Virus record (IMG/VR): IMGVR_UViG_2534681934_000013
DNA length: 22,551 bases
Strand: one strand, 5' to 3'
From: a virus
Taxonomy: Duplodnaviria > Heunggongvirae > Uroviricota > Caudoviricetes
The notes under the pieces are model-generated. The model saw only the letters and a list, made by a program, of their open reading frames with translations, did no database searches and was not told the origin of the DNA. Shown here in pieces: positions 17,092 through 18,067 of this stretch. The translations under genes were made by a program, and so were the position numbers. Position 1 is the first letter of the stretch, and every line of letters starts with the position of its first letter.

Positions 17092-17270
17092 CAACGCGCC
17101 ACACTTATTTTCCAGGCTCGCTTCGGCGGGCCTTTTTTGTATCTGCGCCACGCCCGGCGCATACCAACCACAGAGCCTTTCGGGGGTGAGCTTACGGAGT
17201 GGTCAGTGTGACTTTCTCTGTGGGCAGATCGCTCCCGGGCGTTGGCTCACCCACCCAAAGGAACGTCACG

Positions 17271-17702
17271 ATGTTTGGAATCTTCAAAAAGAAAACCCGC
17301 AGAGCGGCAACGGAAATTAAAAAGTTTGAAAAACGCGATCTGGCACAGGTGGTGATTAACGCCGCATACCTGGTGGCCTGTGCAGATGGTGAATGTGAGG
17401 CATCCGAGAAAGCGAAGATCGAACAGGTACTGCGTAATCAGCCTGCGCTGTCCGCGTTTACGTCAGAAATTAATGCGATTAGCGCAACCATTATCGGTCA
17501 GCTGGATACGAACTTTAAAACTGGTCGTCGTGCGGCGTTACGTGAGATTGAGGATGTGAAACACGATACGCGTGAAGCGGAAGATGTGCTGGATGTGGCG
17601 GTGGCCATTGCGGAGGCAGACGGCGAAATTGAGCCGGAAGAGCGCAAGGTGCTGGAAGAGATTGCCGGTGTTCTGGGTCTTCGTCTGGAGAATCACCTGT
17701 GA
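17271..17702 (+). CDS. TerB-like domain protein (tellurite-resistance TerB family)
   Basis: 143 aa with two helical repeats carrying the ADG motif (LVACADGECEASEKAKIEQVL; AIAEADGEIEPEERKVLEEIAGVLGL); SD AAGGA 7 nt upstream. Confidence 0.6.
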   Translation: MFGIFKKKTRRAATEIKKFEKRDLAQVVINAAYLVACADGECEASEKAKIEQVLRNQPALSAFTSEINAISATIIGQLDTNFKTGRRAALREIEDVKHDTREAEDVLDVAVAIAEADGEIEPEERKVLEEIAGVLGLRLENHL

Positions 17703-17866
17703 CGGTAAAACTGCGCCTGGCTGTGGCTGCACTCCTGCTGTTTCTGGTGGTGATGGTGGATTTCACCAGCAGAATCATGTCGGTGCTGGCGGATGGGGTG
17801 CTGGTCTGCGGCATTGTGGTATTGCTGTGGCCGGTGATAAAAAGAAACAGCCTGCATAATGCTTGA
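17699..17866 (+). CDS. small membrane protein (55 aa, two predicted TM helices)
   Basis: GTG overlaps the TerB-like stop (GTGA); LRLAVAALLLFLVVMV and VLVCGIVVLLWPVI hydrophobic segments. Below the ORF-track cutoff. Confidence 0.3.
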   Translation: MTVKLRLAVAALLLFLVVMVDFTSRIMSVLADGVLVCGIVVLLWPVIKRNSLHNA

Positions 17867-18067
17867 TTTTTTTGTTTGCTGTTTATTAAAAACACTTCTG
17901 CATGGTGAATCCCCCTGTGCGGAGGGGCGATCAGCAACCAGGTATATGGGATAATCGCGGATTCAGGTGCTGATACTGAATTCACCGGGAGGCACCCGGC
18001 ACCATGCTTTGCCACAAAAGTGTTGTTTCTGTTTTTCTCAAACTATCATCGTTATCCCTTTATTTCC

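Follow-up and report, generated by a model that had tools for sequence, protein, structure and literature searches.

What takes the place of the Shiga toxin genes in a prophage laid out like a Stx2 phage, and how might such a cargo be expressed? The question was raised by a 22,551-nucleotide (nt) stretch of tailed-phage DNA (IMG/VR record IMGVR_UViG_2534681934_000013; the whole stretch is called the window here), in which a first reading of the letters (the original prediction) had put a TerB-family protein and a small membrane protein at the stx position, a known moron site. This placement held when the window was compared with the Stx2 prophage Sp5 of E. coli O157:H7 Sakai, in which the order is Q, ileZ, argN, argO, stx2A, stx2B, ECs_1207 (nanS-p), holin, endolysin, ant and Rz. 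Alignment by blastn matched window positions 16845-17149 to the tRNA block and terminator of Sp5 and 17882-18007 to the region 3′ of stx2B; since homology stops at 17149 and restarts at 17882, the segment 17150-17881 occupies exactly the place of stx2AB. The flanks are those of stx2AB in Sp5 and 933W (tRNA block and terminator on the left, a region resembling the small RNA (sRNA) STnc100 and nanS-p on the right, the STnc100/PasD flank being common to Sp5), but the cargo is another one. Lying between Q with the tRNAs and the conserved nanS-p open reading frame (ORF), with flanks homologous to Stx phages, the locus belongs to the PR′ moron site, at which other moron coding sequences have been described in Sp3, 4, 9, 10, 11, 15 and 17, followed by sRNAs that in Sp11 and other prophages are convergent and Hfq-bound (PMC4104026). 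Window positions 17142-17866 are filled by a three-part accessory cassette, made up of a leader RNA, tciA and tciB (Table 1); the prophage that carries it at its PR′ moron site is lambdoid, resembles Sp11 and belongs to E. coli O157:H7. We regard the identity of these parts as practically certain. The structured RNA between the terminator and the start codon, which the original prediction had not noticed, is the least described part of the locus.

About 125 nt between terminator and start codon were found to be conserved in prophages of E. coli, Pantoea, Franconibacter and Buttiauxella and in jumbo phages. Pattern scans together with a covariance model (CM) gathered 24 distinct leaders of this tciA type, which share one architecture: a hairpin, P0, followed by a long hairpin of P2 and P3 whose base runs on into a helix between the Shine-Dalgarno sequence (SD) and an anti-SD, with two pseudoknots, PK1 and PK2, tying the parts together. 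The window copy scored 139 bits against the model, or 90 bits with filters off. In a MAFFT alignment of the 24 leaders (A3), 87.9% of cells were paired and 18 of the 46 pairs showed a compensatory change; 74 compensatory cells were counted, compared with 25.8 ± 4.0 after shuffling (0 of 500 shuffles reached 74), and the covariation score was 0.234, against at most 0.085 in slid controls. A CM alignment of 60 distinct rows (A4) gave 89.9% of cells paired, compensatory change in 23 of 46 pairs, 198 compensatory cells (57.6 ± 5.6 shuffled) and a score of 0.214 (at most 0.044 in slid controls), the nested helices of A4 being biased towards the model because the alignment was fitted to it. Both pseudoknots had been left outside the CM, yet they covary. 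PK2 occurred in seven or more variants (CGCCC/GGGCG, CGCUC/GAGCG, UGCCC/GGGCA, GGCUC/GAGCC, UCUCAC/GUGAGA, UCGCAC/GUGCGA and UCACAC/GUGUGA) and PK1 in five (CACAGAG/CUCUGUG, CGCAGAG/CUCUGCG, CGUAGAG/CUCUACG, CACAGAA/UUCUGUG and CAAAGA/UCUUUG). The anti-SD:SD pairs were present in 23-24 of the 24 sequences of A3 and 58-59 of the 60 of A4, and invariant nucleotides gathered at the junctions (ACAGAGCCUUUC, UCUGUGGGC), with the helices varying and covarying around them. That the leader is a functional cis-acting RNA is therefore, in our estimation, very probable.

The same RNA was found a second time in the window, ahead of the antirepressor-like gene ant (Table 1). In this ant-type copy PK2 pairs UCUCAC with GUGAGA and PK1 pairs CACAGAA with UUCUGUG, and the Stx2 prophage Sp5 holds the same copy (L002 13680-13816). 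An ant-type pattern scan retrieved at least 120 viral contigs, and a CM search of 99 of these contigs gave 103 matches, some contigs carrying two copies. By blastn, the ant-type leader was present in 880 of 5426 complete E. coli genomes (median 3 and up to 10 places in each) and the tciA-type leader in 1254 of 5426; the ant type also occurred in 305 sequenced phages, which include 115 Stx2a- and 35 Stx1a-converting phages, BP-4795 and Salmonella phages such as ST104. A pattern scan of metagenomes returned mostly chance matches, 13 of 94 metagenome loci passing the CM. The genes behind the leaders encode KilA-N, Rha, P22_AR_N/ORF11CD3 and HNH_3 proteins, a tail-tip-like protein and, coming straight after a Q-like gene, a binding protein of the TAXI/NMT1_3 type. 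The occurrence of one leader family before such different accessory genes of late operons argues for a portable translational gate and not for a TerB-specific sensor.

Conservation of this kind could also reflect a DNA-level element before tciA and ant, that is, a recombination joint or cassette boundary serving mosaic exchange among lambdoid phages. The left end of the leader does coincide with the Sp5 homology breakpoint at 17149, and what the stx2A 5′ untranslated region (UTR) of Sp5 retains is limited to the opening 8 nt and an SD block that resembles the 3′ end of the leader. Against this, the compensatory changes preserve Watson-Crick and G-U pairs on the plus strand only (90-139 bits, compared with at most 20 bits on the minus strand), loops that lie far apart stay complementary through covariation, with at least seven combinations seen, and every copy of the element runs up to a start codon and has the SD within its base helix, so that we consider a DNA-level role highly improbable. 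The stx2A 5′UTR, at about 45 nt, lacks the leader fold; within it (L002 7058-7107) the 8 nt kept from the leader start read TCTGCGCC and the SD block reads CCAAAAGGAAC, and about 95 nt between these blocks are missing relative to the leader. From this short and weak similarity it may be a deleted leader remnant.

Rfam 15 gave no gathering-score match at 17142-17273 or 21749-21885, and E-value scans of the leaders yielded only terminator-like partial matches of at most 19.5 bits. The RefSeq and GenBank records carry no annotation in the leader region, and a search of the literature for a described motif before KilA/Rha genes found nothing relevant within the library searched. Several known RNAs were considered and set aside. 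The Pas sRNAs were rejected because all of them end in intrinsic terminators, PasA and PasC adjoining the holin gene; neither AgvB, AsxR, isrK nor any other Rfam family matched at the leader or in the nanS-holin spacer; an RNA thermometer is unlikely given a predicted fold of -56 kcal/mol; and the strand order would not suit the topology of hepatitis delta virus-like or twister ribozymes (by reasoning only), for which the Rfam scans also gave no match. A close comparison is with riboswitches that sequester the SD in a pseudoknot, such as preQ1-II, preQ1-III and SAM-II. Like these, the leader is a compact pseudoknot with, in its consensus fold, the SD in the closing helix and with covarying helices around invariant junctions; it differs in that no Rfam model matches it and that the genes it precedes have no common pathway. 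Its arrangement, in which the P0 loop kisses an internal loop and the P3 loop pairs with the 5′ flank, was matched to no known riboswitch class. A structured 5′ leader that sequesters the SD is thus a known kind of element, but this architecture, and its presumed use as a portable gate in phage late operons, are not.

The effect of the fold on the SD was estimated as the probability that the SD is unpaired, P(SD unpaired), in pseudoknot-free folding, and compared with the same sequences in which the upstream part had been shuffled. For the ant type this probability was 0.05, compared with 0.39 after shuffling, and lower in 20 of 20 cases; for the tciA type the mean was 0.30, compared with 0.47, and lower in 20 of 24. 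The window's own tciA leader departed from the trend, preferring an alternative SD-open fold (0.55, compared with 0.44 shuffled), and its SD occlusion would therefore depend on the pseudoknots. In these models the competing SD-open and SD-closed folds would be compatible with a two-state switch. Most likely the leader gates the translation of late-operon accessory genes: the folded RNA would hold translation of tciAB low until a trigger opened the anti-SD:SD helix.

Two kinds of trigger were considered, and a metabolite ligand on the one hand and an RNA or protein acting in trans on the other are, by analogy with known systems, equally possible. In the first case the leader would be a riboswitch of a new class, in which a small molecule or ion bound to the pseudoknotted core shifts the balance between SD-closed and SD-open forms. 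A compact multi-helix double pseudoknot with invariant junctions amid freely covarying helices, an SD inside the base helix and, in the window copy, a competing SD-open fold of similar predicted energy all fit such a device, as does the proposal that TerB-family proteins bind ligands or metals. Yet the genes downstream of the leaders (for TerB, Ant, KilA-N, Rha, HNH, TAXI and tail-tip-like proteins) share no pathway, unlike those of known classes, and by inspection the competing open fold is not conserved across leader types; we hold a ligand-sensing riboswitch to be unlikely.

In the second case the leader would fold into a form that is inactive in translation until an RNA or protein, of phage or host origin, opens it in trans, and the precedent is Gifsy-1, where read-through of the IsrK terminator yields an inactive antirepressor-like mRNA that is activated in trans by the short IsrK (PMC4825925). 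The likeness lies in an antirepressor-like gene downstream of a Q-like gene and in a read-through mRNA that is silent until opened (PMC4825925); the differences are that there is no sequence or Rfam relationship, that the activator is known in Gifsy-1 and that a conserved double pseudoknot is present here. Of the tciA-type flanks 15 of 26, and of the ant-type ones 41 of 56, carried a terminator-like hairpin with a U-tract no more than about 50 nt upstream of P0; sRNA genes lie on the flanks of the cassette, and PK1 is almost invariant though its pairing would tolerate change, which fits sequence-specific recognition. Candidate activators could be a short transcript ending at the upstream terminator or a neighbouring sRNA such as STnc100. 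But Rfam isrK has no match in the window and the leader copies of jumbo phages follow tRNAs with no terminator between them, and opening in trans is again improbable as it stands. Leaving the kind of trigger aside, we suggest tentatively that the 130-nt element represents an undescribed class of double-pseudoknotted RNA switch that gates accessory genes of enterobacterial phage late operons on a cellular or phage signal. Stx1 and Stx2 phages could be among its users, as could lytic jumbo phages and the P22-like phages of Salmonella, and a small ligand, a protein or another RNA might serve as the signal.

As far as annotation and synteny go, the two proteins of the cassette and the place they occupy were known before. 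TciA matched Pfam TerB (PF05099) with 53.4 bits (E 3.7e-14; cut-off 24.4; residues 31-138 on profile positions 7-109 of 118) and PHROG 632 throughout (E 1e-68, residues 1-143 of 143), and its residues 15-137 aligned weakly with Klebsiella TerB (PDB 2JXU, E 2.9e-7), so that the 143-residue TerB-family protein of the original prediction stood up to both profile and remote-homology searches. The two ADG repeats pointed out at the same time (A38-D39-G40 and A116-D117-G118) are present and were nearly invariant among 54 homologues. An AlphaFold2 model made with these 54 homologues (predicted local distance difference test 83.8) has six helices, and its best fold match in the PDB was the TerB-like 2H5N (probability 1.00, TM-score 0.55-0.62, but a poor E of 0.02). 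DUF533 (25.6 bits) and a DjlA model (29.8 bits) were matched weakly, below their curated cut-offs, and NCBIfam named neither cassette protein, giving only sub-threshold DjlA and YmfL matches. The predicted partner was equally real. TciB, a 55-residue protein with two transmembrane segments, matched DUF3927 (PF13064, E 4.3e-17, 62.3 bits, cut-off 25) and PHROG 1470 (E 4e-30, residues 1-54 of 54); its two hydrophobic segments have basic flanks, a conserved DFTS turn lies in the protein and its end is WP-basic. Its GTG start at 17699 overlaps the tciA TGA stop (ctGTGAcgg), the GTGA overlap seen before, and changes at third codon positions exceeded those at second positions (for example 28 compared with 10), which indicates coding constraint. 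A protein-database search with TciB returned just further E. coli DUF3927 entries. The claim that the pair was undescribed did not survive: Sakai annotation lists ECs_2190 as 'TciA/TerB-like protein' and ECs_5731 as 'hypothetical protein', RefSeq uses 'tellurite resistance TerB family protein' and 'DUF3927 family protein', PHROG 1470 is labelled 'TciB-like inhibition of cell division or resistance to colicin', the PHROGs category of both proteins is 'moron, auxiliary metabolic gene and host takeover', phage P1 is the source of the names tciA-tciB-tciC, and the Sp11 moron site has been published (PMC4104026).

The pairing is widespread. In at least 15 of 20 species-level loci a hydrophobic ORF of 49-59 codons that aligns with TciB began at an offset of -7 to 0 from the TerB stop, and tciA was followed by tciB in at least 73 of 80 viral loci, so the small ORF is conserved, as the original prediction required. 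The VDFTS...SVLADG motif was kept in most TciB homologues and had diverged in Pantoea communis, and the pairing persisted down to 44-48% TerB identity (Serratia, Pectobacterium, an Aeromonadaceae metagenome-assembled genome (MAG) and a Bilophila MAG). Where the flanks of viral loci were long enough, tRNAs lay upstream of tciA-tciB and nanS or holin downstream; JLK-2012 has the order Q, three tRNAs, tciA, tciB, yjhS. In two jumbo phages that are strictly lytic, Caitlin of Erwinia and pSal-SNUABM-04 of Salmonella, the order is tRNA-Trp, tRNA-Cys, TerB, DUF3927 and a TAXI-type binding protein. The tciA-tciB pair is thus a real, conserved, phage-borne two-gene module across Gammaproteobacteria, lytic jumbo phages included.

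Some further features of these loci were recorded. Four backbones that are unrelated to one another (P1, lambdoid phages, jumbo Machinavirus and a Bilophila-MAG contig) carry the pair directly 3′ of tRNA genes, and the identities of the tRNAs differed among the four (L003, L004, L022, L106, L107). A TAXI/NMT1-like periplasmic binding protein gene follows tciB in the jumbo phages (L106 2594-3388, L107 1977-2810), and the same family stands directly behind a leader, after a Q-like gene, in a prophage-like contig (L305, from 1319 onward). Phage 434 has TciB without TciA, behind a 247-residue multi-transmembrane protein lacking a Pfam match (L005 2138-3125), so TciB can pair with other partners. 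The proteins that follow TerB in Pseudomonas juntendi (L021 4441-4644) and a Paracoccus MAG (L023 4398-4604) have 67-68 residues, a single transmembrane segment, about 41% mutual identity and no Pfam match. Two fused TerB-DUF3927 proteins (P0006, P0066) were rejected as Rosetta-stone evidence; their junctions are out of frame (..ENTCDGKTAP..) and they are therefore frameshift or assembly products.

The known systems nearest to the pair differ from it in their setting. P1 likewise has a TerB-family protein followed by a DUF3927 two-transmembrane protein of the same PHROG families (P1 TciA about 50% and P1 TciB about 52% identical to the window proteins), and its genes too are accessory, non-essential and next to phage tRNA genes; it differs in having a third gene, tciC (35 residues; tblastn with P1 TciC matched the P1 locus alone), in its phage backbone and operon, and in showing no detectable leader RNA. 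TerB of the terZABCDE(F) cluster (Klebsiella, PDB 2JXU) belongs to the same Pfam family, with both acidic ADG...E motifs and a TerB-like predicted fold, whereas window TciA stands alone in a phage late operon, and its membrane partner would be a 55-residue hairpin instead of TerC. No terZ, A, C, D or E partner was present beside tciA, where the neighbours are tRNAs, tciB, an sRNA and nanS-p, or in any of the loci examined. In DjlA and YebE a TerB-like domain is held at the inner membrane. The likeness of TciA to the DjlA N-terminal region and to YebE/DUF533 is confined to the weak matches given above, and it differs from them in lacking a J domain or fused transmembrane segment, its tether being, if anything, a separate protein.

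How the cassette would be transcribed is suggested by its borders. The terminator-like hairpin upstream (the stem-loop lies at 17114-17133, slightly 3′ of the hairpin and T-run predicted at about 17100-17128) closes the tRNA unit and insulates the cassette from it, and a sequence scan found no promoter-like site between 17140 and 17270, that is, between this terminator and the tciA ATG. Because of this lack of a promoter-like site we infer transcription by Q-modified polymerase that would read through the tRNA terminator. Q-dependent read-through is the established route of stx2 expression, and by analogy late, Q-dependent expression of the cassette is rather probable.

The product of such expression could serve the lysogen, and the original prediction had favoured a lysogen-benefit or defence module, that is, a conversion or anti-phage moron expressed in the lysogen and conferring tolerance of tellurite or membrane stress, or phage resistance. 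The site is a classic moron site, both proteins fall in the PHROGs category already named, the TerB-containing ter cluster has been linked to phage inhibition and to colicin and tellurite resistance, and Aravind's group has proposed that phage Ter components counter superinfecting phages (PMC7824862). This explanation nevertheless fared badly. PADLOC-DB 2.0 gave no real match (TciA only PDC-S48, 13.9 bits across 35 residues; TciB nothing), a strong terminator with no promoter-like site behind it and an SD-pairing leader stand ahead of the gene, TerB is one of several ter-cluster proteins and the others are absent here, and the same pair with the same leader is found in strictly lytic jumbo phages, which form no lysogens. 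Carriage by lytic phages favours a role in lytic growth over a benefit to the lysogen, and we consider the latter improbable.

The explanation that we prefer, and to which we give about an even chance, is that of a late-expressed, leader-gated tciAB cassette that would act at the membrane during lytic development. By docking on the TciB hairpin, TciA would be held against the inner membrane from the cytoplasmic side, in parallel with TerB and TerC or with the membrane-tethered TerB-like domains of DjlA and YebE. This working model was drawn from the coupling to a two-transmembrane protein, the place upstream of a pinholin and signal-anchor-release endolysin cassette and the occurrence in lytic phages. 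There the pair might buffer membrane or ion stress, or exclude colicins or superinfecting phage, until programmed lysis, service to the lysogen not being its primary role; this part, a role in membrane protection or exclusion, is rather doubtful. TerB-like domains have been proposed to be ligand or metal sensors of the Ter system that work with membrane components, and the stand-alone TerB of Erwinia jumbo phages to act against superinfecting phages (PMC7824862).

Several observations weigh against this explanation or parts of it. Contact between TciA and TciB is suggested by gene adjacency alone, the jumbo-phage versions of TciB lack its conserved Asp residues, and in the Pseudomonas and Paracoccus loci TerB is followed by another small protein that is not DUF3927. 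A CRISPR interference screen of P1 showed only that tciA, tciB and tciC are non-essential for plaque formation (PMC10695390). CM searches detected no leader at distant tciA genes (P1, Serratia, Pectobacterium, Dryocola and Marinomonas), and tciAB function therefore needs no leader. The genes behind the leaders are too mixed to favour a classical metabolite riboswitch, and they point to no particular trigger. The tRNA terminator may be read through in lysogens. Finally, judged by Rfam 15 and by the literature searched, the leader forms a new RNA family, and it may have been described elsewhere.

The features of the cassette and its neighbours are collected in Table 1. Window positions 16800-18250 recur with 100% identity in Sp11 of Sakai and in numerous further O157 genomes, and at least 80% of this segment was present in 646 of 5426 complete E. 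coli genomes. Sp11 matched 6722-22551 with 99.86% identity (12 mismatches and 9 gap openings across 15.8 kb), and positions 1-6721, the first 6.7 kb, had no match to it. Both tRNAs, CAU and Arg(UCU), were recovered as predicted, as was the gene order from Q to ant, save that the AraC-like gene between Q and the tRNAs had been left out; the terminator placed between Q and the tRNAs was not found by a terminator scan.

Table 1. Coordinates of the leader RNAs, the cassette genes and neighbouring features in the window.
Feature	Position	Strand	Remarks
Structured 5′ leader RNA, tciA type	17142-17273	+	132 nt; ends at tciA ATG; covariation, CM match
Leader P0	17144-17149 with 17156-17161
Leader PK2	17151-17155 (CGCCC) with 17237-17241 (GGGCG)		P0 loop with internal loop between P3 and P2
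Leader PK1	17168-17175 (CCACAGAG) with 17216-17223 (CUCUGUGG)		Strand just 5′ of anti-SD with P3 loop
Leader anti-SD:SD	17176-17180 (CCUUU) with 17257-17261 (AAAGG)
Leader P2	17182-17194 with 17242-17255
Leader P3	17196-17204 with 17227-17235
tciA	17271-17702	+	143-residue stand-alone TerB-family protein; Sakai ECs_2190; ATG start
tciB	17699-17866	+	55-residue DUF3927 two-transmembrane protein; Sakai ECs_5731; GTG start
Second leader copy, ant type	21749-21885	+	Between endolysin and Rz; ends at ant ATG; CM 133.9 bits
ant	21883-22452	+	P22_AR_N + ORF11CD3 antirepressor-like gene behind second leader copy
Intrinsic-terminator-like hairpin + T6	17114-17139	+	Stem-loop 17114-17133, 8 pairs (6 GC), TTCG loop; common to Sp5
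STnc100/PasD-family sRNA	17871-18043	+	Directly after tciB, in cargo/nanS-p spacer; Rfam RF02076, 104.7 bits
Terminator-like hairpin + T8	18068-18093	+	Ahead of nanS-p-like gene
Q gene	14984-15550		DUF1133, Phage_antitermQ
AraC-like gene	16107-16820	+	Between Q and tRNAs
tRNA, anticodon CAT	16849-16924	+	ARAGORN: Met; Sakai annotation: ileZ, tRNA-Ile2
tRNA-Arg (TCT), argO	17025-17101	+	ARAGORN, Sakai annotation
nanS-p-like esterase	18180-20030		SASA-type
Holin	20475-20681
Endolysin	21080-21612

Further observations concern the neighbours. The AraC-family product was most like YdeO/GadX (NCBIfam YdeO, 106 bits, under the cut-off of that model), a good promoter-like site lies ahead of its gene at 16044-16071, and the product may resemble the prophage Psr/PatE acid-resistance regulators. 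The 100-nt spacer between the two tRNAs (16925-17024) aligned with the Sp5 tRNA-Arg(TCG) gene argN but was heavily substituted, and ARAGORN found no tRNA in it; judged by this alignment the spacer is probably what remains of a decayed tRNA gene. At 12382-12556 on the plus strand Rfam RF01794 matched a sok antitoxin RNA (113.5 bits), adjoining an annotated mokC/hok-type prophage gene. The endolysin frame is split in the window into ORFs at 21080-21280 and 21250-21612, and Sakai ECs_2186 is a single 534-nt gene. In the spacer between tciB and nanS-p there was no Rfam match to AgvB or AsxR. That between nanS-p and holin holds two terminator-like hairpins (20331-20419, plus strand), at the position given to PasA/PasC-type sRNAs in the Pas sRNA preprint, and gave no Rfam match even at E up to 1.

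The coupling of tciA to tciB, their phage-borne state and their sharing with lytic phages move the question of what the pair does from the lysogen to the infected cell before lysis. The leader occurs in about one-fifth of complete E. coli genomes, inside the late operon on which Shiga toxin and lysis also depend. Should it prove to be a switch, it would add a post-transcriptional control point to late expression in Stx phages and provide a compact gate for engineering; a common regulatory layer would then lie beside the toxin and lysis genes of the prophages of enterohaemorrhagic E. coli.

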